Of a DNA stretch of 20,503 nucleotides, positions 1-20,503 are shown one piece after another. The number at the start of each line of letters is the position of its first letter. The first letter of the stretch is position 1. A program made the position numbers and the translations under genes. The stretch spans positions 1-20,503 of the forward strand of contig JAZDNN010000015.1 of assembly GCA_043799675.1 (NCBI GenBank). Reading direction: 5' to 3'. The notes under the pieces were generated by a model that was not told where the DNA came from, searched no databases, and worked only from the letters and a program-made list of their open reading frames with translations. Source of the DNA: Candidatus Aenigmatarchaeota archaeon (GTDB lineage Archaea > Aenigmatarchaeota > Aenigmatarchaeia > Aenigmatarchaeales > JACQIB01).

Positions 1-125
1 TCGCCGGAAGGCAGGCTCGAATTACAATCATAGAGCGGCGTTGCAGCGAGCCCGCCTGCGGACAGACACAGCAGGAAAGTCACGGCACTCAGCAGCAGCA
101 AAATCGGCTTGTACAACCCAGACAC
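1..125 (-). CDS. 5' part of a secreted protein with signal peptide (runs off the left edge)
   Basis: Manual translation from GTG at 125: MSGLYKPILLLLSAVTFLLCLSAGGLAATPLYDCNSSLPSG..., open to the edge. Basic residue, hydrophobic core and GLA-A cleavage-like site. TATA box TTATAAAA at 154-147. Confidence 0.6.
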   Translation of the reverse strand, partial: MSGLYKPILLLLSAVTFLLCLSAGGLAATPLYDCNSSLPSG

Positions 126-146
126 CCAGCCCTAATTCGCGTGCCG

Positions 147-154
147 TTTTATAA
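147..154 (-). promoter_or_regulatory. Archaeal TATA box for the gene starting at 125
   Basis: TTATAAAA on the minus strand ~22 nt before the GTG, which is leaderless spacing. Confidence 0.55.
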
Positions 155-194
155 GGTTGTCTTCTGCCGTAAGGCTGACAAAAACCGGTAAAAT

Positions 195-232
195 ATGATA
201 TTACCCCGTCAACAAGAATGCGACGGGCAAAA
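195..232 (+). repeat. Dispersed semi-palindromic repeat, copy 1
   Basis: atgatattaccccgtc-aacaagaatgc-gacgggcaaaa, with a CCCGTC/GACGGG inverted repeat. Closely similar to the copy at 8893-8930. Confidence 0.8.
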
Positions 233-245
233 GAAAAGGAAAAGT

Positions 246-395: not shown

Positions 396-1056
396 TGTTA
401 TCAACTCCCATCGTCTTTCTTGGTATAGAGGAACCTACGTTCTTTAAAAACCTTTCTACGCCGCCCTTGTTGTATATGCCCAAAACATACAGGTTTTCTT
501 TGAAATTACAAACACGACCATCTATTACTGTCTGGTGCGGTTTTCGAAATGCTATCTTAGAACGTATCCCGTATGTCCTTTCCATGACACTCTTTATATT
601 TTCAAGTAGCTGTAGATTGGAATTCAACATTCTTACGCAATATGTAGTATAGGTTTTCTCGCCTTTCTTGGTAGTGAATTTTGTAAGAGAACCTTCACTA
701 TCATAAAAACCTTTTATAAAAGCATTAGGATGTGTTAAAGAAATGCGCGACAATTCTTCTGCGGTCAAATTGTAATACCATTCGTAGAATGCTTTCGACC
801 TCAGACAAATCTTGTAGAGCCCACTTTTGCAGTAAATTATCTTTACTGTTCTCGAAAAAACCTTTCCGAGACATCTGTTGAACTCTTCTAAAAACTTTTT
901 GTCCTTTACACAAAGTTGTATTATGTGCTCATGACCGTATGCTGTCTTCGTCTTGTATACACAACCGTCACCTTCCAGAACGCCCAGAATATAAGACAGC
1001 TCAAGGGACGGCTCCAAAAGAGGCTGCGGTGTATTGAACTGATTCGGTCTTTTCAC
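388..1056 (-). CDS. Free-standing two-motif LAGLIDADG homing endonuclease (intein-endonuclease-like)
   Basis: Motifs LSYILGVLEGDG and AFIKGFYDSEG with acidic catalytic residues intact. No Hint splicing domain. Visibly more AT-rich than flanking genes. Confidence 0.88.
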   Translation of the reverse strand: MKRPNQFNTPQPLLEPSLELSYILGVLEGDGCVYKTKTAYGHEHIIQLCVKDKKFLEEFNRCLGKVFSRTVKIIYCKSGLYKICLRSKAFYEWYYNLTAEELSRISLTHPNAFIKGFYDSEGSLTKFTTKKGEKTYTTYCVRMLNSNLQLLENIKSVMERTYGIRSKIAFRKPHQTVIDGRVCNFKENLYVLGIYNKGGVERFLKNVGSSIPRKTMGVDNNG

Positions 1057-1090
1057 GAACTATATTAAGTTTCCACATTAAAGCTTTTTC
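1057..1090. promoter_or_regulatory. Compact divergent promoter region (LAGLIDADG / tyw1)
   Basis: TATATTAA at 1061-1068 (+), ~22 nt before the tyw1 ATG. GAAAAAGC-TTTAAT on the minus strand (1090-1077), ~20 nt before the GTG at 1056. Confidence 0.55.
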
Positions 1091-2008
1091 ATGCTCACCC
1101 AGGACCAGCTCAGGCGCCTTCAGGCTGCCGATTACCGCATATTCGGCCCCAACAGGCATTCGGCGGTCAAGCTATGTCATTGGTGCAAGCAATCCATCAA
1201 AAGCGGCGGTGAGAAGCACTGCTACAAACAGAAATTTTACGGCATACGGTCCCACCGCTGCCTGCAGATGACCCCCTGCCTGCCCCTTTGCAACCTGCGC
1301 TGCTCCCATTGCTGGCGGGACCATTCTTATTTCAAATCAACTGCAGAGGGCCCCATGGACTCTGCAGCAATTGTAGCTGAGCAGTCCCTAGAAGCCCAGA
1401 AGAAGCTTTTGGTCGGCCTGGGCGGCGTGGACCATTCCGCCATTCATCTGAAAGAGGCAATGGAACCAACCAACGCCGCCATCAGCCTGGACGGCGAGCC
1501 CACCCTGTATCCTTACCTAGGCGACCTGATAACCGAATACAAGAAAAGGGGCATGACCGTCTTCCTTGTCACCAACGGCATGAGGCCGGATGTTCTTGCC
1601 TCTCTTGACACTCTGCCAACGCAGCTCTACGTCTCCGTTACCAGCCCCGACAAGGCGTTCTTCGACAGGACCCAGCATCCCGTTCCTCCCGCAGGCTGGG
1701 AAAAGCTCATGGAGACGCTTGAGCTGCTCCCTTCGTTGAAGTGCAGGACTGTGATCAGGCTGACACTTGCGAAAGATTTCAACATGGATGCCGTTCAAAA
1801 GTTTGCCAAACTGATTGCCAAGGCAAACCCGACATTCATCGAGCCCAAGGCGTTCATGCCCATCGGCGCATCCAGGAGCAGGCTCCCGTACGAGGCGATG
1901 CCAAGGCACGAGGAAATTGTTTCCTTTTCCGAAAGGCTTGCTTCAGAGACAGGCTACAAACTGGCGGACGAAAGCAGACCCAGCCGAGTGGTGCTCCTGA
2001 AGAAATGA
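1091..2008 (+). CDS. taw1: 4-demethylwyosine synthase Tyw1/Taw1 (radical SAM tRNA modification enzyme)
   Basis: HSAVKLCHW, CYKQKFYGIRSHRCLQMTP, CxxxCxxC (CNLRCSHCWR), AISLDGEPTLYP, FLVTNG, PTQLYVS, SRVVLL. Confidence 0.95.
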   Translation: MLTQDQLRRLQAADYRIFGPNRHSAVKLCHWCKQSIKSGGEKHCYKQKFYGIRSHRCLQMTPCLPLCNLRCSHCWRDHSYFKSTAEGPMDSAAIVAEQSLEAQKKLLVGLGGVDHSAIHLKEAMEPTNAAISLDGEPTLYPYLGDLITEYKKRGMTVFLVTNGMRPDVLASLDTLPTQLYVSVTSPDKAFFDRTQHPVPPAGWEKLMETLELLPSLKCRTVIRLTLAKDFNMDAVQKFAKLIAKANPTFIEPKAFMPIGASRSRLPYEAMPRHEEIVSFSERLASETGYKLADESRPSRVVLLKK

Positions 2009-2014
2009 TTTAAA
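2009..2014 (+). promoter_or_regulatory. TATA box of tRNA-Pro
   Basis: TTTAAA immediately after the tyw1 stop, 22 nt before the tRNA 5' end at 2037. Confidence 0.6.
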
Positions 2015-2036
2015 CTCCGTCAATGCAGAAAGCAAT

Positions 2037-2200
2037 GGGCTCGTAGTCTAGCTTCATGTGAAGTTCGCTTCGCATGCTAGTCTGGTAGGATTCCAGCTTG
2101 GGGACGACCTAAGCTCATTAGATCGCCGAAATGCTGGCGACCTGTGTTCAAATGAGCGCGGAGCGCCAAAAGCGCTTTGAGAATCACAGCGAGCCCACCA
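2037..2200 (+). tRNA. tRNA-Pro(GGG) with three introns: 2054-2082 (17/17a), 2104-2131 (37/38), 2153-2183 (59/60); CCA encoded
   Basis: Spliced 76-mer GGGCTCGTAGTCTAGCT|TGGTAGGATTCCAGCTTGGGG|TGCTGGCGACCTGTGTTCAAA|TCACAGCGAGCCCACCA folds into a cloverleaf. Each intron has a 4-bp central helix and 3-nt bulges: CTAG/CTAG, TTGG/CCGA, TTCA/TGAG. Confidence 0.92.
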
Positions 2201-2209
2201 ATCGCTGCT

Positions 2210-2623
2210 TCATGCCGGATTGATGCTGGCCACTTTCACGGTGAAAATCAGCGTCTTGCCCGCCAGCGGACTGCTTCCGCTTGTACCGTAGCCTTGCTCA
2301 GGAGAAACGGTAAATGTCTTCTCTTCCCCCGCTTTCATTCCCAGCACGCCGCTATCAAAGCCCGGGATGACCTGGCCCGAACCGACCGTAAATGTAAACA
2401 GCTGCTTGCCCACGTTGCTGTCCACCGTGCTTCCGTCCACGACCAGCGTGTAATAGACCGAAATCGTATCGCCTGTTTTGACCGCAGCGGCTGTCGGGTT
2501 CGCCTGCCCCACGCAGCCTGCAATCAGCAGCAACGGTACAACAAGCAGGATGATAGTTCCCCGATGCAAGAAACTGACGGGCAAAATTCTCCGGCATGCG
2601 GATGTGACGGGCAAAAGAATCAT
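2210..2623 (-). CDS. FKBP-type peptidyl-prolyl isomerase, putative lipoprotein (true start may be TTG at 2569)
   Basis: GDTISVYYTL..DG..VDSN, FTVGSGQVIPGFDSGVLGMKAGEEKTFTVSPEQGYG, PLAGKTLIFTVKV. Hydrophobic signal ending in lipobox LIAGC. Confidence 0.9.
   Translation of the reverse strand: MILLPVTSACRRILPVSFLHRGTIILLVVPLLLIAGCVGQANPTAAAVKTGDTISVYYTLVVDGSTVDSNVGKQLFTFTVGSGQVIPGFDSGVLGMKAGEEKTFTVSPEQGYGTSGSSPLAGKTLIFTVKVASINPA
2550..2616 (+). repeat. Dispersed repeat, tandem copies 2a (2550-2586) and 2b (2587-2616)
   Basis: atgatagttccccg-atgcaagaaact-gacgggcaaaa followed by ttctccg-gcatgcggatgt-gacgggcaaaa. Ends 3 nt from the rpoN stop. Confidence 0.75.
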
Positions 2624-2814
2624 CGCTTGAACTTCGCTATCTGCGGAAGGGTATCCACCTGCGTCAGGAGCGCGCTCCTGCAGCAGTAGTTTGTCACACC
2701 GAGGCTGTCAAGGACCGCCTTGCTGCTCTCGCCTTCCACCACCCGTTTCTTCAGCGTTTCCCAGTACTGCCCTATCGGGCGGCCGCAGGAAATGCAACGA
2801 ACCGGACACATCAC
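2620..2814 (-). CDS. rpoN: RNA polymerase subunit Rpo10 (N)
   Basis: (M)MCPVRCISCGRPIG...LDSLGVTNYCCRSALLT. Start GTG 2814 or ATG 2811, preceded by GGGGAGG. Confidence 0.95.
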   Translation of the reverse strand: MMCPVRCISCGRPIGQYWETLKKRVVEGESSKAVLDSLGVTNYCCRSALLTQVDTLPQIAKFKR

Positions 2815-2816
2815 TA

Positions 2817-3713
2817 TTATCCTTCCTCCCCAAGTTTCATTACTTCCTCTAGCAGACCAAGAGGTTTTAAAGCTAGCGCTTCGAGCAGCTGCCGCAGCCG
2901 CTGAACGCTGGGCTGGCGTTTGCCCCACTCGATGCGCTTAAGGTAATCATAACTGACGCCTGCTTTTTTTGCAAACTGACTGCGAGTTAAATCAAGCTGC
3001 TCGCGCTTGGCTACAAGTACATGACAGATAGCTGGCTCATCTGACAATAGCTTCAGCCAATCATCTTCGGTCGGCCATTTATCGCGGATGTAATGCAACC
3101 GCCTGCCGCGACCCTTGCGGCCGGTGATACAGCCAGAAATTTGATCAGGGGGTTCCAGACCTATCAGTTTAAAGAACCGTACTGCAGTACATCCTCGGCC
3201 AACTAATACAAAACTGCCATCCGTCTGTCGCTGTGGTGCAAAATCCAATTTCTTTTCACGTAATTTTGTTACAAGCAATTGAATATCGCTATATCGGAAA
3301 CAATTCGTTGCAAGTACAGGGTAGGGCTTGCGGTTGCCGCCATGACGGTTCATCGAACCGTCGCCTATGTACCAGTGTAACAACGCAACGGGTGTGAGAA
3401 ATAAATCCTTTGGAACAATCTTCTGAGTTTTGTCATCGCCATCCACGTACCATCCTTTCCGGAGGCCGAGAAGGCGCTCGTCCTTCGTTTTGTTGATGTA
3501 AAATCCGAATGCGAAACAGCCTGTGATATTATTGTCAACTCCAATGTAACTGTTAGTAATTCCGTTTTGTTCAAACTGCGACTTCAACCATCCGAGCAAC
3601 TGTTGATCTTTAGCGACGCATTTGTAGTAGAAATATTTGCCCTTCCATACACGTATATTCGCATCACCGAGCAACGTACCATCAATAATCTGCATTAAGT
3701 GCTCGCTAATCAC
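2817..3713 (-). CDS. Free-standing LAGLIDADG endonuclease with C-terminal XRE/Cro-type HTH
   Basis: QIIDGTLLGDA and KIVPKDL.LTPVALLHWYIGDGS motifs, LATNCF. C-terminal REQLDLTRSQFAKKAGVSYDYLKRIEWGKRQPSVQRLRQLLEAL. AT-richer than neighbours. Confidence 0.85.
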   Translation of the reverse strand: MISEHLMQIIDGTLLGDANIRVWKGKYFYYKCVAKDQQLLGWLKSQFEQNGITNSYIGVDNNITGCFAFGFYINKTKDERLLGLRKGWYVDGDDKTQKIVPKDLFLTPVALLHWYIGDGSMNRHGGNRKPYPVLATNCFRYSDIQLLVTKLREKKLDFAPQRQTDGSFVLVGRGCTAVRFFKLIGLEPPDQISGCITGRKGRGRRLHYIRDKWPTEDDWLKLLSDEPAICHVLVAKREQLDLTRSQFAKKAGVSYDYLKRIEWGKRQPSVQRLRQLLEALALKPLGLLEEVMKLGEEG

Positions 3714-3786
3714 GCGTTTATTTCTCTTGCTTACTTAAACGGTTAATGCGTCGCGGAGCTATACTCTAGAAAACATATTTACTAAC

Positions 3787-4260
3787 CTATCGCTTCGAGC
3801 GCTGTTTATGCCTACGGGGTCCAGTTTTTGACCGGCTGGGTTTGTGAGGTTCCGTCCTTCTGGGGTCGGAAACCAGCAGCGTCCTGTCATACGCAATGAA
3901 TATCGGTTTGAGCTTCCGGTCGAATCCGACGAGCACGTTTGCTATCGCGGTCCTTGCGGCATCCGCCTGCCCTATCGGCCCGCCGCCCGTGACGTTCACC
4001 TCTATGTCGACGCCTTTCGCGGCTTCCCCTGCGACAATCACGGGCTCCTGCATCTTGAGCCTGGCCATCTCCGGCTGGATGATTGCAAGCGGCCTTCCGT
4101 TGATCATTATTATTCCGCTTCCCGGCCTGGCAATCGCCCTTGCGACCGCCCTCTTCCTGGTTCCCAGAGTCTGTACGATCTTGACCTTCTTCTTCGACTG
4201 AACAGGCTCGGAAATTATTTCCCCGTCACCGATTGTCTGTTTGATGTTTTCCGCCATCAT
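3787..4260 (-). CDS. rps9: 30S ribosomal protein S9 (uS9)
   Basis: GTRKRAVARA, VNVTGGGPIGQADAARTAIA, YDRTLLVSDPRRTEPHK..GPR..KQRSKR. ATG at 4260 overlaps the L13 stop (ATGA). Confidence 0.95.
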   Translation of the reverse strand: MMAENIKQTIGDGEIISEPVQSKKKVKIVQTLGTRKRAVARAIARPGSGIIMINGRPLAIIQPEMARLKMQEPVIVAGEAAKGVDIEVNVTGGGPIGQADAARTAIANVLVGFDRKLKPIFIAYDRTLLVSDPRRTEPHKPSRSKTGPRRHKQRSKR

Positions 4261-10617: not shown

Positions 10618-11211
10618 TTATACCTTTACCAAGTCGTTCAGTTCCGCTTTTGCTTCGGCTGATAATAACGTCCTCCTTCCACCATAATGATCCTTGTTTA
10701 TCTCAAGCACACGCTGCACAACAATCGCCTGCTCTCTTTTCACCACAAGAGAACCTGCGATTTGTGGAAGCAATTTCAGTAGTGGTCTCGACGAGAGTTC
10801 GTACATCCACATAGGCTTGTATTTGCCCTGTCTTTTGTTGAATGAAATGTGCCCAGAGCCTACCACGGATGCAATTTTGTATACAAGTTCTTTATTGGTA
10901 TTTCCTATCATGAGTCGTGGATGGTAGCCGACCGATTTTTCAGTCCGTATCATATGCAATGTCAGCGTACCTTCGCCATCAATGAGTCCGCACAACCAAC
11001 CTTTCTCGAAGTCGGATAGTATTCTGCATACGGTATCAATCTTGGTCAAACCCAAGCCGTATGCCTTTGTATAGATGCCGTGCATGCTGTGTTTCGGGAG
11101 CAGTTTTACGAGTTCTGCGCAATTCCTACTCTTGTGGGTCCGCTTCAATATTTCAACTTCGTCCTGAGTCCATTTTGAAAAGGTCTTCGGTGCTCTCACA
11201 ACTAACAACAT
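10618..11211 (-). CDS. Free-standing single-motif LAGLIDADG endonuclease with N-terminal Myb/HTH-like segment
   Basis: KWTQDEVEILK...LVKLLPKHSMHGIYTKAYGLGL, then EKGWLCGLIDGEG, YHPRLMIGNT, LLPQIAGSLVVKREQA. AT-richer than neighbours. Confidence 0.82.
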   Translation of the reverse strand: MLLVVRAPKTFSKWTQDEVEILKRTHKSRNCAELVKLLPKHSMHGIYTKAYGLGLTKIDTVCRILSDFEKGWLCGLIDGEGTLTLHMIRTEKSVGYHPRLMIGNTNKELVYKIASVVGSGHISFNKRQGKYKPMWMYELSSRPLLKLLPQIAGSLVVKREQAIVVQRVLEINKDHYGGRRTLLSAEAKAELNDLVKV

Positions 11212-12511: not shown

Positions 12512-13414
12512 TCAATCCTTCACGCGGCCGGGGAGGTACCTTTTGTACTCCTTGGCATACCTCTTGAAGAACCATTGCACGAAGATGCCGTCAATCTTTT
12601 TCGTTTGCGACCTTTCCAGGGCGGTGTAGTATCCGCTCCTCTTTTCATACGGAATGTTCAGCATGGGATAACCGTGCCTGTTCAGGACGAAATTCATCAT
12701 CAGCCTGGATATGCGCCCGTTGCCGTCCGAAAACGGGTGTATGGTCACGAATTTCAGGTGGACCAGCGCAGCAAGCTCTACAGGATGTACTTTGTCTTTG
12801 TTCCTGTCATACCACCCGAAGAACTCCCTCAGAAGCGGCTGCAGTTCCACGGGAAACGGCGGCACGAACTTGCTACCGGAAATGGCGACCTGATGCTCTC
12901 TTATCCTTCCGGCCATTTCCGGTTCCGAGTTCTCGAACAGTCCTTTGTGCCAGTATAGCACGGCCTGCAGGGACAGTTCCTTTTTGTATGCAAGCATCTC
13001 CCTGAAGACCCGCGCGTGCGCCTCGGCTTCCTTCACATCGCGCACGGGCTTGGTGTGCGGCGTTATGCCCCTTTCCAACAGATTTGCGGTCTCCCGCAGG
13101 GTCAGTTTCGAACCCTCTATACGCTGGCTGTCATAGGTGAACCTTATCGCAAAGGTTTCGGCCGCCTTCTCGGCGGCGGCATCCGGCGTGACCTTCAGCT
13201 CCTTCGAGCATGCGTCCCTTATCCTGTCGAACAGGGAATACCATTTCTCCCTGTACAGTTCGAAAAGGAACTGCCGCTTCATGCCTTCGACATTCTTGGG
13301 CGGCTCCTTGCCGAGGTACTTCTCCCTTTTCCTGATTTTTCCGCCCTCCCTCACGGCATGCTCGATATAATAGTAAGTGCTTCCCCCGACCGTCCTCTTC
13401 CTTATGACGACCAT
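12512..13414 (-). CDS. Fic-family protein with N-terminal putative DNA-binding beta domain
   Basis: Canonical HPFSDGNGRISR motif, FTYDSQRIEGS (inhibitory-motif-like). N-terminal IRKRTVGGSTYYYIEHAVREGGKIRKREKYLG. Confidence 0.92.
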   Translation of the reverse strand: MVVIRKRTVGGSTYYYIEHAVREGGKIRKREKYLGKEPPKNVEGMKRQFLFELYREKWYSLFDRIRDACSKELKVTPDAAAEKAAETFAIRFTYDSQRIEGSKLTLRETANLLERGITPHTKPVRDVKEAEAHARVFREMLAYKKELSLQAVLYWHKGLFENSEPEMAGRIREHQVAISGSKFVPPFPVELQPLLREFFGWYDRNKDKVHPVELAALVHLKFVTIHPFSDGNGRISRLMMNFVLNRHGYPMLNIPYEKRSGYYTALERSQTKKIDGIFVQWFFKRYAKEYKRYLPGRVKD

Positions 13415-13518: not shown

Positions 13519-16500
13519 TCAAGCCATCGTAGCTATGAACGTCACCGTGCTCGTCTTCGCACCCGAGGGCTCGCTGTTCGGGACCGCGATCGCTATCTCG
13601 GTCTCAATCTGGTCGGTCGCGTTCAACCAGTCGAGGAAGCAGATGAACTGTGGAGGTGTTCCGCCCGAGACAGGCATGTAGAACCAGCTTGTGTTGGTGC
13701 AGAGGGTGTTGTAGGTCGTGCCTTCGGTGCTGGTGTTCGCCGCGGCCCTGTAAGCTGAGCTTGGGTTGGGGCTGATTGTGAACATGTTGGTGGCATTGAT
13801 GGTTATGTTCGCCTTGATATTGCCGTCGTTCCTTATCTCGAACGGCAGGGGTTTGTCATCCGCAGTGTCATTGACGGTACCGGTTGACATGTTGCCGAAG
13901 GCGACCGTGTCCGTTGTGAGTGTTATCAGGATGCTGGACTGTACAGTGAACGTGCTGACGCTTGTCGCGTTCTTCCCTCCGTCCGAATTATTCGCATGTA
14001 TTTTCCAGCCGACCACGGTGTTTCCGGCCACGGAATCGTTGAACCAAGTGATGTTGGACCAGGTTCCCGCACCGAATGCTGTAGCCGTCTGGTTCCTCCA
14101 AGTACCGGATTCGTTGGTCTCAAGCCAGTAGTAGTTCAGGCTTGTGGCGTTGGTGCTCCAGTTGGCATACAGCTTGACTCCTGACCAAGCCGACGGTGTC
14201 GTGGTGTTTGAACCGGCAAGGTCCGAGAAAATGTAAGTAGCCGCCTGGCTCTGCACTATGCTCACCGTCGGCTCCGGATAGATGTACTTGCGGACGCGGA
14301 AATCGTCCCACCACGTCTGGCCGGCGTTGCTGCCCCACAATCCCGCCTTCGTGCTTGTCGTGAGGTTCGAATTATAGCCCGTCATGGACGTCCCGTTGAC
14401 GTTGAGCGTGAAGTTGCTTCCCGACACCGAGAGCCCCTCATAATAGTAGTTGTTCGCACCCAGCGTCTTGGCTGTCGATACGTTGTATGCTCCCGATACG
14501 GAGTTCAGCGTACCGAAGATGCCGATTATGTCTCCGGGGTAGTTCAGGTATGACGCGAAGAAATTGCTCTGGTTGGCATACCTGAAGTTGTATCCCGCCT
14601 GGCCGCTGTCCGCAGTCCGCCCGACGGTGCCTTCAATCGTATAGTTGTCAGATATCCCTATGTTGGCGTAGAGCGTGTCATTTACGCCGCTGCTCGTAAG
14701 CTTCCCCCTGTATGAGCCGCCCGTAAGTTCGATGGTCCATGAGCCGTTCCCGGCGGTCCATTTGCTATTATCCACAGTAAGGTTACCGTTCTTGGTTATT
14801 CCGACCTGCCTGCCTCCGTGCGTCTGGTTCGGGCCGCCGTCATAGAGCAGCGTCAGGACGCCGTTCTCATATATCAAACCGGCAACTCCTATTGAACCGG
14901 AATCCCAACCGGAAGTTGATCTGTTTATTATGCTACCCTGATACGTCCATGAACTCAGGTCCGCGCTGGCGTTCCTGTAAAGGAAATTCGCATCCGTATG
15001 TTCTCCCGTATAATTGATATGGTTCGTTACCATGTAATAATTATTGTCAATTGCCTTGATTATCTTGGGATTTTCCTCCCATGTCAGGGTTCCGGATGCC
15101 AGGCCGGCATACGTCCAGTGGAAAAGGTCCGTTGATTTGAAATACACTATCCTGACTATGGTCGGGTCGGAGCCGCCACAAAACAAAAGCCACTGGGATG
15201 AATTGGACGGGTCGCGCAGCAGTTCGTCGCATATGACGTGATAGGAATATGGCGTTCCCGCCGTGGGCACTATGACGGGGTTTCCGGCATACTGGACCCA
15301 TGAAGAAATGTTGGAGACGTTGGTCGTGGTTGCCATTTCCACCCAATATGCCGGCTTGGGTGCATTGTAAGTCGCGGCATCGGTCGTGGTGTTGGAACCC
15401 ATGTAGTACATGTAGTAAGTGCCGTTATACTTGAACACGTACGCCGAACTTCTGGTCAGACTGTTCCACGGAGCGCTCGAGAAGTTCTGTGTAACCAATC
15501 CCATTCTCGTCCAGTTATACAGGTCGGTGGAAGTCGCCATCGATTCGTACCACTCGTCGCCGGACACGGTTCCCTCCGAAGTGTAGAACATGGTGTAGGT
15601 GCCGTTTTCCTGGAACGTCTTCTCGTAGGTGACGTTGTCAATTATCTGCAATATGTCGACTTCCCGTATGCCGCGGTTGTCATACGGGGCGCCCGGGTAA
15701 GTGATGTTCATCACCGGGTTACTTGCATATCTGCTGAAATGCGTGACGTTCAATGATGTATCGGACGCCCCTTGGAAATCGTCAAAGAAGATGAAGGTCG
15801 CATTCCCGCTGCTCACGTTTTCCGCAAGCATGTTGCCGTAATACATGGTTATGTATGTGGTCGTGTTCGCCCAGATGAGCGGGACCTTGACAACGAAGGT
15901 CGTCGTCGGGGAATTGCATGTGCCGCTCCACAGCCAGTGAGACAGCAGGCCGTAGGTGCTGTTCACGAACCTTGCATCAAGGCAGCTCGTATTCATCTGC
16001 CCCGCGGATATCAGCGTCGCCGTATCGATGCTCACGTTGACCTGGTAATCAGTGAGATTCACCGGGAGACTGTTTGAAATGGATATGTTTTTCTGGTAGG
16101 TATAATTGCTGTTCCACCAGCTTGTCACGGTGACCTGCCTTTCCGATGAGTACACAGAATCAGTTGAGTTGTATGCCCTGCATCTGATGTTATAGGTGTT
16201 CAGGTCGTGCGCGGTGACGGTCTCGCTCCGCTGGGTGTTGTTCAGGACGTTCGTTTCGGGGTTCGTCACGAGGGTGATGTTCCATGTCCCCGAGGTCGGG
16301 ATCGCGGTCCAGCCGAAGGTCGAAGAGTTGTATTCGTATGATATGTTATTCCCGGTCGAGGCCCCATTCGTTATTGCGGTGCATGCAATCGTGAATGTGC
16401 TGCCGGGGTACGTGATGGTATCCGTCGCTGGTTGGTCAAGGCTGACCGAATAGACCGTTGGCGACCCTATGTAAAAGACGGCCCCTGTCTCCGTGTCATT

Positions 16501-19500
16501 CGCCGTGCCACCGCTGTAGGAGGTCGCGTTGGCCAAAACGAACAGGTTCTTTGCGCCGCTGAGCCCGACGGGCACGGTGCAGGCAACACTCCATGTTCCT
16601 GTAGCTGAATCATACGTTGCATATGTTCCCTCCTCCGCGCCCGTTGTACTGGCGGGCTCTGTCCCGTACCATTTGCGCACAAAAATCCAGTCGGTTGTCA
16701 TGTTGCCGCTGCCCCACGAACTTGGGTCGCCTACTGACTGATAATACCGGAGCCCTGTACTGTTTATGTTTTCAGCGAATACGGTTGAAAAGATGCTATA
16801 GGTATCGTTATAGAAATACCATGTTATGTTGGTTGCATTGATTTTTTGCACTTCATGCGTCCATAACCCCGAAGGCATATAATAACCGGTTCCCGCACCG
16901 CCGACAAATATTTGCCGATTATCGAACACGCCGTAGTCGGTCGGGACATCCGCGCCATGCGCCTTGGACCTGATTCTCATGTCCGGAATGATACCGGTAA
17001 ACATTACCCTCCGTTCTATGCTTATGTTCGGTGCGAACGTTTTTGTGCTATTAATCTGATGGAACGCTCCGCCCGCCGAATATTGATTAAGCAGGCCGTC
17101 TGATACCGTTGCAACAGAGGTATTGTTTGAAATAACCACCCATTTGGCATGGTCAATGCCACCAGTGGTATTGTAAAGACTGTTATTGTAAGAACCGCCG
17201 TCATAAATCTGTGGGTTGTCCAGGATGTATCTTAGAGTTCCCATGGGTGATTCCAGGTTGGTATCGAATCCCTGGCTGCCGTTCTTTGCCCAGTATTCCA
17301 CGTCGGGGTTCGTGCTGTTCGAGAGCTGGAGCGTCAGGTTGTATGCAAGGCTCGCGTTCTTGACGGCCAGTGTGGTCAGTATCCAGTCGTTGCCGAAGCT
17401 CCAGTAACCGTCGTCGTAGGTCGAAAAGAGTGGCGTGGACCAGTTGTTCGGGGTCTGCAGCACGAACCCTTTGTAGGTTATGGAATTGAAATTATTCGCG
17501 AGGTAATCCTCGATGTATGACGCCTGCGACGCGTTCGCGACGCCGAGATGGACAGCAAAGGCGCTTCCCACGATGTCCGTCAGGTTGTTCGCGCCGTCCG
17601 CCGCGTGGAACATGTTGTCCGTGTCGTTCCACAGCCTGGATATGTTGCCCCTCACGTTGTTTGCCGCGTTCGTGAAGTAGGTATAGTTTTGACTGTCCCC
17701 GCTTATGTTCAGCAGATAGGCCATGTCAACCGAGGCCTTGTAATACATCAGGGACCCCAGCAGGTTGTTCCCTGTGTTCAGTACACCGTCCCTGAAACCG
17801 AACGGCACCCAGGGGCTGGCTGGGGCCACATAGACCAGGCCGGTCGTCGAGTTCATCTGGACCGTCTTGAGGGCGTTTATCAGCTTGACCCTGTAGCCGG
17901 TGTTGAACACGCTTATGTCCCCTGTCTTGTTGTAATACAATCTCGCCAATTGCGGCATCAGGAATTGCGCATCGCCCCCTGCATGGAGATGCCAAGAATC
18001 GTATCCCGAATAGTAACTGGCGGCGGCACCGTTCGTGGCCAAGGATATCGGCATTTCCCCGCCAGCATTTGCGGCATTCATAAATTTGCTGATAGTATTG
18101 TTAACATGAGAAGCATTGAAATATTCGGGATAGCCGATCATAGTCAGACCGATGTCCGCGGCGTATGCGAAAACGTAGCCCGGTGCAGCCTGCCAGTAAT
18201 CCGTCCCGTCCGTAAAAGTGGTGTGGTCTAATGAAATCACGTTGTCCGCAGCCGCCCTTACGTTGTTGTAAATGGTCTGGTTTTCGCTGTAAATAAAACT
18301 GTTGAAATCATCAAACAGTATGAAAGTATCGTTGCCGCTGCTTCCGTATGCATGGCTCATGTTTCCGTAATACATCACTAGGTTTTCGGTCCCTGCCGCG
18401 GGGATGTTCGGCACTTCGACCCATATCCTGGTGCCGGTCGTGTTACAGCCGGACTCTATCCAATGATCGATCTCCGCGTTTGACGAGTTGAAAAATCTTA
18501 TATCACCGCAATCGGAGCGCATCTTTCCCGCCGCGATGAGGGCAGAAGTGTTGACTGTAATATTGACCTGATAGTTCGTCAGTGCGAAGCCCAAGCTGTT
18601 TGTGATGGTCGTTCTTTGCAGATAGGTACCTCCGCTGCCGGAGCTCTGCAGCTGGCAGGTCTGCCCGCCGACCGTAATGTTGGTCACGCTGACGCCGCTC
18701 GTGACATTTGTCCCGTCCCTCGTGAAGGTGTAGTTGACGGTGATGTTCTGCCCGTCCGTAACCGAAACGGGATTCCCCTGGGTCGGATACGTGATGTTCA
18801 GTGTAAATGTATGGGGGTTTACAACGACCTGCCTTGTTAAGGAGTAGACCGATGTCGTCGAGCTGTTTGCATTGCAGCGGATGTTGTAAGTGTTCGCCGT
18901 CCTCGTCGTGACCGTTTCGTTCTGCTGGCTGTTGTTCTGGACGTCCGTTTCGGGGTTCGTCACGACGGTGAGATTTGCGGTTCCCGAGGTCGGAATCTTG
19001 GTCCAACCGAAGGTCGACGAGTTGTATTCGTATGTGATGTTGACTCCGGCCGCTGCGCCGCTGGTATTTGCCGTGCATGCCATCGTGAACGTGCTGTCGA
19101 CATACGTGTTCAAATTCGTCGTAGGCTGGTCAAGACTGACCGAATAGGCCTCCACTCCCTTGACCGTGACCTGCTGGGTCGCGGAGTAAACGGATGCCGA
19201 CGAGTTGTACAGCTTGCACCTGACGTTGTACGTACCCTGCAAATTTCCGGTGACATTTTCGGATTTCATGATTCCGTTCAGGACGTCGGCCTTGGGGTTC
19301 GCCGATATGGTGATGTTCTGCCCGCCGGCCGTTTCAATCGCCTTCCATGCCATCGTTGACGAGTTGTATTCATATGAAATGTTGACTCCTATGGTGGCCC
19401 CACCGGTGGTCGGGGTGCAGTTCATGCTGAACGTCTGGCTTCCGAATATGCTGGGGTCGGAAGTGGGGGCGTTCAGGGCGACCGAAATCACGTTCGGAGT

Positions 19501-20503
19501 TCCGGCGCCGGGGTAAACGACCGCTCCTGTTTCCGTGTCGTTGGCAGTGCCGCCGGCGTAGGAGGTCGCGTTGGCGGAAACGAACAGGTTCTGGGCGCCG
19601 CTGAGCCCGACTGGCACGGTACAGTTCGCGCTCCATATTCCGGTCGCAGTATCATACCACTGGCTAGAGCTCTGGTAGGTGCTGCTGTTCTCTTCTGCCC
19701 TCTGGGTCGGAACGGGTTCCTTGGCGCTGTTATACCATTTGCGGATGAAAATCCAGTCGGTGGTTATATTGCCGGACATGGTGCCGTCAGGGTCCCCGAC
19801 CGACTGGTTGTAATGCGTTCCTGCGGCGGGCGTGTAGGCACCGGTGTTCGGATAAGGTGCGGCAGAGGTGTTCACGAACGTGATGAAGGTCAGGGTTGTC
19901 GAGTTTATCCGTACCGATACTTGACGATTCCATGTGGATACGCGCACATATTTTAACATAAAGGTGTTGAAGTATACCTGGAAGTCGCTCACGGCCGTAC
20001 TGAATAATCCGTATTCAAACTGCCCGTCAGCAAGACCCTTGAACCTGTCCCTGGGAGCGGTTGCTCCGGTATCCTTGAACATGTACATCCCTTCCACGCT
20101 GACGTTTGTGGTGTAGGTGGTCTTGCTGCTGATCACATGGTGCGAACCGTACTGCCTGAGCAGGCCGTTCGATACCGTCACGATAGGGCTGCCGAACGTG
20201 CTGGTATCCCATTTGGTCGAATTGATGGCGTTCGACGGGTTGCTGAAATCATCAAAGAAGATGAACGTATCGTCACCGCTGCTCCTGTTCATCGCGGCCG
20301 GATTGCCGTAATACATGGATATGTTCGCGCCGGCCGCGGGGATGTTCGGGACCTTTACCCATATCAGCGTTCCGTTCACGTTGTTGCAACCGGTCTCTAT
20401 CCAGTACGGTATCTCGTCGCCCGTGGAATTGGCGAACCTCACGTCCCCGCAGTCGGAACGCATCTTTCCGGCCGCAATGAGCGCGGACGTGTTAAAGGTC
20501 AGG
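13519..20503 (-). CDS. Giant modular surface glycoprotein (5' part outside window): at least 3 DUF2341-like modules, Ig-like repeats, six-hairpin glycosidase-like and five-bladed beta-propeller glycosidase-like domains
   Basis: Frame is open to the window edge (LTFNTSALIAAGK-MRSDC). Repeated MRSDCGDxRF..W+E..C...WV+VP.IP..MYYGN..G..TF.FFDDF. Three VSLxxP..YEYNSSTxxW..YNxRC repeats. Many N-x-S/T sequons. Confidence 0.85.
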   Translation of the reverse strand, partial: LTFNTSALIAAGKMRSDCGDVRFANSTGDEIPYWIETGCNNVNGTLIWVKVPNIPAAGANISMYYGNPAAMNRSSGDDTFIFFDDFSNPSNAINSTKWDTSTFGSPIVTVSNGLLRQYGSHHVISSKTTYTTNVSVEGMYMFKDTGATAPRDRFKGLADGQFEYGLFSTAVSDFQVYFNTFMLKYVRVSTWNRQVSVRINSTTLTFITFVNTSAAPYPNTGAYTPAAGTHYNQSVGDPDGTMSGNITTDWIFIRKWYNSAKEPVPTQRAEENSSTYQSSSQWYDTATGIWSANCTVPVGLSGAQNLFVSANATSYAGGTANDTETGAVVYPGAGTPNVISVALNAPTSDPSIFGSQTFSMNCTPTTGGATIGVNISYEYNSSTMAWKAIETAGGQNITISANPKADVLNGIMKSENVTGNLQGTYNVRCKLYNSSASVYSATQQVTVKGVEAYSVSLDQPTTNLNTYVDSTFTMACTANTSGAAAGVNITYEYNSSTFGWTKIPTSGTANLTVVTNPETDVQNNSQQNETVTTRTANTYNIRCNANSSTTSVYSLTRQVVVNPHTFTLNITYPTQGNPVSVTDGQNITVNYTFTRDGTNVTSGVSVTNITVGGQTCQLQSSGSGGTYLQRTTITNSLGFALTNYQVNITVNTSALIAAGKMRSDCGDIRFFNSSNAEIDHWIESGCNTTGTRIWVEVPNIPAAGTENLVMYYGNMSHAYGSSGNDTFILFDDFNSFIYSENQTIYNNVRAAADNVISLDHTTFTDGTDYWQAAPGYVFAYAADIGLTMIGYPEYFNASHVNNTISKFMNAANAGGEMPISLATNGAAASYYSGYDSWHLHAGGDAQFLMPQLARLYYNKTGDISVFNTGYRVKLINALKTVQMNSTTGLVYVAPASPWVPFGFRDGVLNTGNNLLGSLMYYKASVDMAYLLNISGDSQNYTYFTNAANNVRGNISRLWNDTDNMFHAADGANNLTDIVGSAFAVHLGVANASQASYIEDYLANNFNSITYKGFVLQTPNNWSTPLFSTYDDGYWSFGNDWILTTLAVKNASLAYNLTLQLSNSTNPDVEYWAKNGSQGFDTNLESPMGTLRYILDNPQIYDGGSYNNSLYNTTGGIDHAKWVVISNNTSVATVSDGLLNQYSAGGAFHQINSTKTFAPNISIERRVMFTGIIPDMRIRSKAHGADVPTDYGVFDNRQIFVGGAGTGYYMPSGLWTHEVQKINATNITWYFYNDTYSIFSTVFAENINSTGLRYYQSVGDPSSWGSGNMTTDWIFVRKWYGTEPASTTGAEEGTYATYDSATGTWSVACTVPVGLSGAKNLFVLANATSYSGGTANDTETGAVFYIGSPTVYSVSLDQPATDTITYPGSTFTIACTAITNGASTGNNISYEYNSSTFGWTAIPTSGTWNITLVTNPETNVLNNTQRSETVTAHDLNTYNIRCRAYNSTDSVYSSERQVTVTSWWNSNYTYQKNISISNSLPVNLTDYQVNVSIDTATLISAGQMNTSCLDARFVNSTYGLLSHWLWSGTCNSPTTTFVVKVPLIWANTTTYITMYYGNMLAENVSSGNATFIFFDDFQGASDTSLNVTHFSRYASNPVMNITYPGAPYDNRGIREVDILQIIDNVTYEKTFQENGTYTMFYTSEGTVSGDEWYESMATSTDLYNWTRMGLVTQNFSSAPWNSLTRSSAYVFKYNGTYYMYYMGSNTTTDAATYNAPKPAYWVEMATTTNVSNISSWVQYAGNPVIVPTAGTPYSYHVICDELLRDPSNSSQWLLFCGGSDPTIVRIVYFKSTDLFHWTYAGLASGTLTWEENPKIIKAIDNNYYMVTNHINYTGEHTDANFLYRNASADLSSWTYQGSIINRSTSGWDSGSIGVAGLIYENGVLTLLYDGGPNQTHGGRQVGITKNGNLTVDNSKWTAGNGSWTIELTGGSYRGKLTSSGVNDTLYANIGISDNYTIEGTVGRTADSGQAGYNFRYANQSNFFASYLNYPGDIIGIFGTLNSVSGAYNVSTAKTLGANNYYYEGLSVSGSNFTLNVNGTSMTGYNSNLTTSTKAGLWGSNAGQTWWDDFRVRKYIYPEPTVSIVQSQAATYIFSDLAGSNTTTPSAWSGVKLYANWSTNATSLNYYWLETNESGTWRNQTATAFGAGTWSNITWFNDSVAGNTVVGWKIHANNSDGGKNATSVSTFTVQSSILITLTTDTVAFGNMSTGTVNDTADDKPLPFEIRNDGNIKANITINATNMFTISPNPSSAYRAAANTSTEGTTYNTLCTNTSWFYMPVSGGTPPQFICFLDWLNATDQIETEIAIAVPNSEPSGAKTSTVTFIATMA

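Follow-up and report, generated by a model that had tools for sequence, protein, structure and literature searches.

Archaeal proteins with DUF2341 domains are located in type IV pilus loci and have been proposed as tip adhesins (PMC4858521). A member of the same family was recovered in a transformation screen of M. maripaludis (PMC10133366), other members occur in giant proteins of Patescibacteria (PMC11809585), and the giant laminin G (LamG)- or concanavalin A (ConA)-like proteins of DPANN archaea are predicted host-attachment factors (PMC7443923). We examined a giant DUF2341 gene of Candidatus Aenigmatarchaeota archaeon (assembly GCA_043799675.1; genome of 0.75 Mb in 45 contigs, 83% complete), located in a window of 20,503 nucleotides (nt) that comprises the entire contig JAZDNN010000015.1. 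The gene is a single open reading frame (ORF) on the minus strand (window 13519-20502) and encodes 2327 amino acids (aa) plus the stop codon. Its 5' end is open: the contig stops at 20503, and both the N-terminus and the start of the first DUF2341 copy are lost. The protein holds three DUF2341-containing modules, and two of them are interrupted by large inserts at the same codon-level site. Close named relatives of these modules are 'DUF2341 domain-containing proteins' from Aenigmatarchaeota metagenome-assembled genomes.

Two large inserts at one codon-level site

The Pfam DUF2341 model (PF10102) matched the protein three times (E 8.8e-65, 215.6 bits), and each of the three modules scored well above the gathering score of 23.4 bits (91.5, 78.5 and 68.2 bits, respectively). 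The match in module 1 (aa 17-100, E 4.9e-26) covered profile positions 1-83 out of 84. Those in modules 2 and 3 covered positions 1-71 (E 5.2e-22) and 2-71 (E 8.7e-19) of the same 84, and in both cases position 71 corresponded to an FDDF motif. The three FDDF motifs are found at aa 83, 730 and 1573 (nt 20245-20256, 18304-18315 and 15775-15786), and a KW motif follows each of them at aa 97-98, 1120-1121 and 1914-1915, respectively. The modules end with DWIFIRK at aa 249 (module 1), DWIFVRK at aa 1271 (module 2) and WWDDFRVRKY at about aa 2066-2075 (module 3). The segment between FDDF and KW is only 10 aa long in module 1 (SNPSNAINST, nt 20215-20244). In module 2 it reaches 385 aa (nt 17149-18303), and in module 3 it has 336 aa (nt 14767-15774). 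At the DNA level, the three copies of a direct-repeat family of 80 nt start at 15775, 18304 and 20245. On the coding strand these positions are the last base of the FDDF codons; the homology between the three modules therefore ends at one and the same codon, and both inserts occupy one codon-level site.

It is highly improbable that this arrangement is an assembly chimera or a decaying pseudogene devoid of biological meaning, as a draft of 45 contigs with 83% completeness and an ORF that runs off its contig might suggest. The frame is open over 6984 nt and the GC content along the giant gene is even (0.52-0.56). A second contig of the same genome (C23, 3764-8710, plus strand) encodes a paralog of 1649 aa (stop-to-stop) with both nested modules at about 80% identity, its inserts being 84% and 78% identical to those of the window. 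Three proteins from other sources (P0008, P0009 and P0200) have the FDDF junction too, and since the paralog and these three proteins share it, the junction is not an assembly artefact.

For insert 2 (17149-18303, minus strand; aa 734-1118), AlphaFold2 (AF2) predicted a complete twelve-helix barrel with a predicted local distance difference test score (pLDDT) of about 97 over model residues 100-460. The barrel itself extends over residues ~98-470 of the model, nearly the whole stretch from FDDF (residue 93) to KW (residue 480). Structural comparison of the model with VIA-align retrieved a glycoside hydrolase (GH) of family GH100 (5gop, Z 33.8, 344 residues aligned), followed by GH116 (Z 31.6) and GH78 (4xhc, Z 28.7) and, lower in the ranking, by GH94, GH63, GH52 and GH37; the best 50 rows had Z values of 26.5-33.8 and 313-349 aligned residues. 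The identity to known (alpha/alpha)6 structures was only 10-15%, and searches with the single sequence recovered no PDB chain and no Pfam family. A family profile built from 39 sequences matched GH78 3cih (E 7.1e-14), 2okx (E 3.9e-6) and GH94 1v7v (E 3.6e-5) in the PDB. The match to GH78 3cih spans only 170 positions, and the structural Z values are higher for GH100 and GH116 than for GH78. Together, the predicted model and the profile matches identify insert 2 as an (alpha/alpha)6 six-hairpin glycosidase-type domain that is nearest to GH78, GH100 and GH116.

We found 420 relatives of insert 2 among the representatives clustered at 50% identity, 59 of them at E <= 1e-30. Only 4 of the 63 relatives that were scanned reached a Pfam cut-off for any (alpha/alpha)6 family. 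This group (420 clusters at 50% identity, with P0005-P0153 among its proteins) thus mostly escapes Pfam and represents a candidate uncatalogued glycosidase family that would merit enzyme characterisation.

Insert 3 (14767-15774, minus strand; aa 1577-1912) matched the GH32 invertase 1uyp in a single-sequence phmmer search of the PDB (E 2.3e-5). A profile of four sequences matched 5mt2/5mui (E 8.9e-13), GH117 (E 6.7e-9), GH130 (E 1.6e-8) and GH32 (E 1.7e-7), and some additional rows for phenylacetate-CoA ligase stemmed from an extra C-terminal domain of P0003, one of the profile's members. Relatives were few: the C23 paralog (78% identity), the secreted protein P0002 (44%), in which the domain comes first, and P0003 (25%). 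The relative searches retained 2 out of 1493 near candidates and 1 out of 5219 longer candidates, the latter being the genome's own paralog. These matches point to a five-bladed propeller, a putative glycosidase relative of the GH32/43/117/130 and 5mt2 type. Some results weigh against this assignment, which was made from sequence. The Pfam GH130 score of insert 3 was 19.4 bits (cut-off 26), and its NCBIfam matches were far below their cut-offs. The candidate catalytic motifs PYDxRG, RDP and EE/ED are also present in P0002 in an alignment that is insecure, HMMER places the RDP of insert 3 at a distance of 4-5 residues from that of GH32, and the aspartate of its REVDIL segment is a glycine in the paralog.

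Stand-alone versions of both insert types exist, namely 24 out of 82 long (alpha/alpha)6 relatives, which are proteins of less than 470 aa, and P0002 for the propeller; the guests are therefore autonomous domains. It could be argued that they are no longer enzymes and serve only as glycan-binding heads of an adhesin for attachment to a partner cell. This would agree with the proposed tip adhesins of the type IV pilus loci (PMC4858521), with the attachment role predicted for the LamG/ConA-like giants of DPANN (PMC7443923), and with the candidate catalytic residues of the propeller that are not all conserved in the paralog. We regard the loss of activity as rather unlikely, because the (alpha/alpha)6 domain keeps all five acidic positions that are conserved in 33-38 of the 39 family members (D783, D844, D905, D976 and E1069), and the RDP and E-E/D motifs of the propeller are common to the window protein, the C23 paralog and the stand-alone P0002.

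A first-pass annotation of the window, made from the letters alone, had reported different inserts at one site of repeated modules, and the motif positions, the break in the Pfam match and the DNA repeat bear this out. It had also placed the segments of modules 2 and 3 to within ~15 nt, and all the peptide motifs it quoted were found in the translated ORF. For module 1 it was right that the segment is short, but the ~7 aa that it gave at ~20227-20246 are in fact 10 aa at 20215-20244. Its proposal of glycosidase inserts of different folds held as well, through model and profile for the (alpha/alpha)6 domain and through sequence only for the propeller relative.

The FDDF strand and the proposed jelly-roll host

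We aligned 25 uninterrupted modules of related small genomes with module 1 and with another uninterrupted module of the same genome (27 rows), the latter from a paralog fragment of at least 644 aa on contig C34 (3429-5360, minus strand). All share a common layout: a DUF2341 core, TFxFFDDF, a short loop, (L/I)(D/N)xxKW, ~170 aa and (D)WxxVRKYxxPEP. In module 1, the core corresponds to 20269-20502 (aa 1-78, N-terminally cut; AF2 pLDDT ~90), the TFIFFDDF strand to 20245-20268 (aa 79-86) and the remaining jelly roll to 19717-20244 (aa 87-262), which comprises the SNPSNAINST loop, KW and a DWIFIRKWY end. The AF2 model from the 27-sequence alignment (pLDDT 70.7, predicted template modelling score 0.73) had a DSSP strand at residues 82-84 and its last strand at residues 245-255.

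In the comparison of this model with the PDB by VIA-align, only ConA-like jelly rolls were retrieved: 143 out of 1000 chains had Z >= 8 (best 9.9), and the matches (Z 8.3-9.9) included GH16 enzymes, lectins, Cip1 and TtX122. Complete single-domain ConA-like chains aligned to the model from residue 80/81 through 256/257, such as Cip1 (3zyp, 1..214), lichenase (3i4i, 5..216), a legume lectin (1f9k, 4..234) and TtX122 (8q2a, 5..232). Module 1 as a single-sequence query retrieved no PDB chain, and profile searches were needed for matches; the module profile then matched LamG of neurexin (E 1.4e-4) and, from profile position 105 onward, 4jqt (E 1.5e-3). Some relatives match 3keto-disac_hyd and Laminin_G_3, and in one of them the Pfam DUF2341 match (141-221) overlaps the 3keto-disac_hyd match (213-383, profile 6-187). 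In ordinary modules, FDDF thus stands where the jelly roll has its first strand.

Two consequences follow from this position of the strand. First, the Pfam DUF2341 model runs ~12 positions into the next domain, so that it straddles two structural domains, its last dozen positions being the first strand and loop of the ConA-like roll; a break of the DUF2341 profile at position 71-73 can be used as a flag for hidden cargo. Second, with FDDF as strand 1 and KW as strand 2 of the jelly roll, the slot corresponds to the loop that connects these two strands. The first-pass annotation had located the slot in the DUF2341 module itself, and we place it instead in the next domain, in the loop after strand 1 of the ConA-like jelly roll. 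The same annotation had named in advance separate domains for FDDF and KW as a refutation of its proposal; in the uninterrupted modules the two motifs lie in one structural domain.

We then asked which part of the jelly roll stands on each side of the inserts, using a jelly-roll hidden Markov model (HMM) of 182 states that starts with TFxFFDDF and was built from 25 modules of other genomes, with no own-genome sequence. Module 1 of the window matched HMM positions 1-177 (aa 79-255, E 2e-12). The region after insert 2 matched positions 11-177 (aa 1114-1277, E 6.2e-5) and the region after insert 3 positions 13-182 (aa 1910-2077, E 9.3e-9). In the C23 paralog, the first nested module matched positions 12-178 (aa 579-743, E 2.3e-5) and the second one positions 33-182 (aa 1368-1540, E 4.1e-7), and P0009 matched positions 29-182 (aa 506-671, E 1e-9). 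As the FDDF strand corresponds to HMM positions 1-8 and the rolls after the two inserts resume at positions 11 and 13, the flanks of each insert are consecutive and do not overlap.

The corresponding features of module 2, all on the minus strand, are the DUF2341 core at 18328-18582 (aa 641-725, AF2 pLDDT >90), the orphan first strand TFILFDDF at 18304-18327 (aa 726-733) and, after the insert, the jelly roll without first strand at 16651-17148 (aa 1119-1284), which begins with KW, ends with DWIFVRKWY and is 34% identical to the jelly roll of module 1. In module 3, the core is located at 15799-16032 (aa 1491-1568), the orphan strand TFIFFDDF at 15775-15798 (aa 1569-1576) and the jelly roll without first strand at 14272-14766 (aa 1913-2077), beginning with KW and ending with WWDDFRVRKYIYPEP. 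No FDDF-like strand was found in the stretches just ahead of KW in modules 2 and 3; the RQVGITK that precedes KW in module 3 is the last conserved strand of the propeller itself and is also found in the stand-alone P0002. The post-insert jelly rolls have thus lost exactly their first strand.

As a control, we scanned 125 DUF2341 proteins with 208 DUF2341 matches. A jelly roll was present within 60 aa for 118 of the 208 matches; in all 118 it came after the DUF2341 and started at HMM position 9 or earlier. The remainder consisted of 63 modules without a jelly-roll match and 27 whose next match was farther off; some of the latter were checked and, besides the nested and tandem cases named here, corresponded mostly to the roll of the next module or to LamG_3-type domains. 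The host domain is therefore continuous without an insert in its homologues (module 1 and 118/118 ordinary modules).

The relatives of insert 2 that carry DUF2341 present two layouts. P0008 and P0009 present a DUF2341, an FDDF-type strand, the barrel and then the jelly roll. In P0006, P0007 and P0016 the DUF2341 lacks FDDF, and the barrel is followed by a jelly roll that is complete from HMM position 1 and begins with its own ...VFTAWDDF... strand. Whatever the position of the guest, each jelly roll has a single first strand, as expected of a strand that the structure requires; this is our main argument in favour of true nesting, and the insertion of both guests into the first loop of the jelly roll appears to be the best reading of these alignments.

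The same domains could alternatively be arranged as beads on a string, with FDDF as the tail of DUF2341, the enzyme in tandem and a downstream roll that is truncated or partly degenerate. Pfam itself counts FDDF to KW within DUF2341, and P0006, P0007 and P0016 prove that a plain tandem of the same three domains exists; these tandem relatives, though, carry the strand on the jelly-roll side. A plain tandem would also agree with the AF2 model of the whole module 2, in which FDDF forms no strand and the jelly roll is not confidently predicted (pLDDT <40 in the jelly-roll zone; pLDDT 53-76 at FDDF, without a strand at model residues 90-92). The alignment behind that model had only 6 sequences in the jelly-roll zone, and when ordinary modules or pieces of them were added, MAFFT misplaced them into the insert zone and the jelly-roll pieces were dropped.

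Further points count against nesting or against the identity of its host. No model of a nested module pairs the FDDF strand with the downstream sheet (module 2 was modelled), and the jelly roll of module 1 was predicted with only moderate confidence (pLDDT <50 at 148-184 and 213-239). Its Z values of 8-10 against the PDB are only slightly above the level reached by unmatched models, the three jelly-roll segments of the window match no Pfam family at E <= 10, and the 3keto-disac_hyd match in the relative with overlapping domains reached 26.2 bits, just below the cut-off of 26.8. A complex prediction between the DUF2341 plus FDDF piece of module 2 and the post-insert roll gave 0.16 against a mark of 0.32 and was not used as evidence.

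We nevertheless judged a plain tandem in the window to be unlikely. When ordinary modules are compared with ConA-like chains, this strand coincides with strand 1 of the chains, all 118 ordinary modules scored start at HMM position 9 or earlier, and the post-insert rolls lack exactly HMM positions 1-10 or 1-12 with no replacement strand. In addition, the window protein has an intact TFxFFDDF before each insert, as does the paralog; P0009 has a close variant of it and P0008 a more divergent version (TFIFYNNF).

Proposed function and spread

The 2327-aa protein contains 122 N-x-S/T sequons, compared to 50 +/- 6 in 500 shuffled sequences (maximum 72). They are spread evenly across all parts of the protein, with 4.7-4.8 sequons per 100 aa within the inserts too. 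The C23 paralog has an N-terminal hydrophobic segment, a Ser/Thr-rich linker and a C-terminal membrane anchor. Given the excess of sequons and the hydrophobic segment and anchor of the paralog, the window protein is most naturally read as extracellular and glycosylated, at the cell surface. Against it stands the N-terminus of the window protein, which lies beyond the contig end together with any signal peptide. The neighbourhood of the giant gene in the window consists of housekeeping genes and gives no hint of function.

The explanation that we favour, and consider fairly probable, is a nested lectin-enzyme surface protein with the guests in the first loop of the jelly roll. The gene would encode a very large N-glycosylated protein on the surface of a DPANN-type archaeon, composed of repeated spacers and three lectin-like modules, each of which would join a small DUF2341 domain to a jelly roll of ConA/LamG type, with TFxFFDDF as the first strand of the roll and DWxFxRKY as the last. 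In modules 2 and 3, a whole glycosidase-type domain would be grafted between the first (FDDF) and the second (KW) strands. The (alpha/alpha)6 and propeller folds are closed rings with their chain ends side by side, so the jelly roll could still close, with FDDF pairing with the downstream sheet. Such a reassembled split roll would hold the catalytic domain rigidly against a domain of carbohydrate-binding type. The protein would then probably bind glycans and cut or trim them, at the cell surface or at a cell-cell or cell-matrix interface. Candidate targets include host envelope glycans, extracellular polymeric substances (EPS) and environmental polysaccharide; the first-pass annotation had suggested the S-layer glycans or EPS of a host. 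The reassembly of the roll, catalysis, the substrate and the surface location are what we infer from the arrangement. Glycosidase-type domains on a giant adhesin-like protein suggest that reduced DPANN cells might remodel or harvest the glycans of their contact surfaces. That one chain carries guests of two different folds at a single codon-level site points to a permissive loop, which may be of interest for protein engineering.

We then examined how widely the arrangement is spread. Eight of the 82 long (alpha/alpha)6 relatives are joined to a DUF2341 domain: 2 are nested (the genome's own paralog and P0009), 3 are in tandem, 2 have the DUF2341 only, and the eighth, P0008, is probably nested. 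In a quick IQ-TREE tree of 83 (alpha/alpha)6 domains, with Shimodaira-Hasegawa-like approximate likelihood ratio test (SH-aLRT) support only, the window and its paralog (support 100) and P0008 with P0009 (support 99) formed two separate pairs. The deeper forks had supports of 81-89, and the tree therefore does not tell one from two origins of nesting.

For the propeller, P0200 (aa 532-1140), found among the best 120 of 356 DUF2341 matches, carries TFATFDDF and, 8 residues on, a GH130-like propeller that scored above the Pfam cut-off (29.1 bits). After the propeller follow ...VNWQK... and a jelly roll without a first strand of its own, ending with AYLDDVIVR. The identity between this propeller and insert 3 is only 28% (E 4e-12). 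Among the same best 120 matches, P0167-P0169, P0189, P0220 and P0221 have RCC1-type propellers or NosD/beta-helix domains; the beta-helix of P0221 is located upstream of DUF2341 and outside the module.

DUF2341 was present in 32 out of the 61 related genomes searched, and large inserts at the FDDF site were found in this genome only. Thirteen loci with a DUF2341 match that ended near profile positions 64-77 were read, and none had a large insert at FDDF; in its stead they carried either a LamG_3 domain or variants of the strand (FDFFNH, FVQWHG). Two other loci of these searches are of interest. In L042 (G009:C6, ORF 899-3937), FDDF and KW are adjacent and a propeller-like domain of ~300 aa (aa ~315-640) stands before the last strands ...YIDWVFVRQYREPEP. 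This domain matched PDB 6n1a (E 1.1e-20) and, as a lead only, GH130/32/43-type clusters of a protein atlas (0.94); it marks a second point of insertion within this host fold. In L043 (G054:C47, ORF 726-2492), a DUF2341 and FADF are followed by a region (aa ~285-589) that resembles GH5/GH42-type triosephosphate isomerase (TIM) barrels in the atlas (0.93-0.96; lead only), and the contig stops before the end of the module.

The nested arrangement is thus rare but recurrent. The two cargo folds of the window, together with P0008, P0009, P0200 and the second site in one relative, suggest an interchangeable slot in evolutionary terms. A broader version, which is tempting but rather doubtful at present, would make the first jelly-roll loop and at least one further loop an evolvable docking slot that was repeatedly loaded by ultra-small archaea, perhaps also by bacteria of the candidate phyla radiation (CPR), with an (alpha/alpha)6 cargo from an uncatalogued glycoside hydrolase family (>400 clusters) acting on the surface glycans of partner cells. 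The known or suspected cargo would comprise two subfamilies of propeller in addition to the (alpha/alpha)6 barrel, and perhaps a TIM barrel.

The rest of the giant protein consists of two spacers and a C-terminal region, all on the minus strand. Spacer 1 (18583-19716, aa 263-640) is composed of repeated beta-rich units without a significant Pfam match, spacer 2 (16033-16650, aa 1285-1490) has no Pfam match either, and the C-terminal region (13522-14271, aa 2078-2327), with no assigned family, is shared with the C34 paralog fragment. The DNA repeat families D1, D2, D5 and D6 are common to both spacers, which indicates that the gene grew through duplication of module-plus-spacer blocks. Spacer repeats of 145-243 nt have 79-82% identity (window 16214-16615 versus 18908-19657). 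The other genes of the window encode ribosomal proteins, an RNA polymerase subunit, Cbf5, a NUDIX protein, a Fic protein, a wyosine enzyme and three LAGLIDADG endonucleases. The three LAGLIDADG ORFs (388-1056, 2817-3713 and 10618-11211, all on the minus strand) are located amid the ribosomal-protein and RNA-polymerase genes, one of them fused to a helix-turn-helix domain, and the Fic/DOC-domain protein (12512-13414, minus strand; E 7.6e-23) is encoded directly downstream of the giant gene.

Comparison with known systems

The window protein has the same modular giant layout as the DUF2341 (PF10102, MJ1470-type) surface or pilus-locus proteins of archaea and CPR bacteria, with its three matches above the cut-off. 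The passages on DUF2341 in PMC4858521, PMC10133366 and PMC11809585 mention no enzyme domains inside the module, whereas two of the three modules are interrupted at profile position 71 here. The LamG/ConA giants of DPANN (e.g. Nanohaloarchaeota) are likewise large, rich in sequons and equipped with ConA/LamG-type domains. The passages that describe them present these giants as lectin-like only (PMC7443923), whereas the jelly roll examined here appears to host catalytic-type domains in its first loop.

Among enzymes, the GH43 beta-xylosidases (5z5d, 5joz) combine the same two folds as module 3, and their beta-sandwich was among the best matches of module 1 (Z 9.0-9.9). Their domains stand in plain tandem with the propeller first, whereas the propeller of the window protein would lie inside the jelly roll, after its first strand. 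GH78 rhamnosidase, GH100 invertase and GH116 glucosidase have the same fold as that predicted for insert 2 (313-346 residues aligned), but insert 2 matches no Pfam model.

Nested domains are known in glycosidases, such as the lectin domain in the propeller of the Vibrio cholerae sialidase and the PA14 domain in GH3. In these cases, as we propose here, a loop of the host domain accommodates a second domain; there the guest is the binding domain and the host is the enzyme. The polarity would be reversed in the window protein, with a lectin-like host, an enzyme-type guest and two guest folds at one site in one chain, a reversal of the usual relation between host and guest. We found no description of a lectin-type jelly roll that hosts whole catalytic domains, or of two guest folds at one loop, in the literature searched. 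Nested domains, lectin-like DPANN giants and enzymes made of a propeller plus a jelly roll are all known already; a jelly roll that hosts enzyme-type domains, with two different guests, is apparently new.

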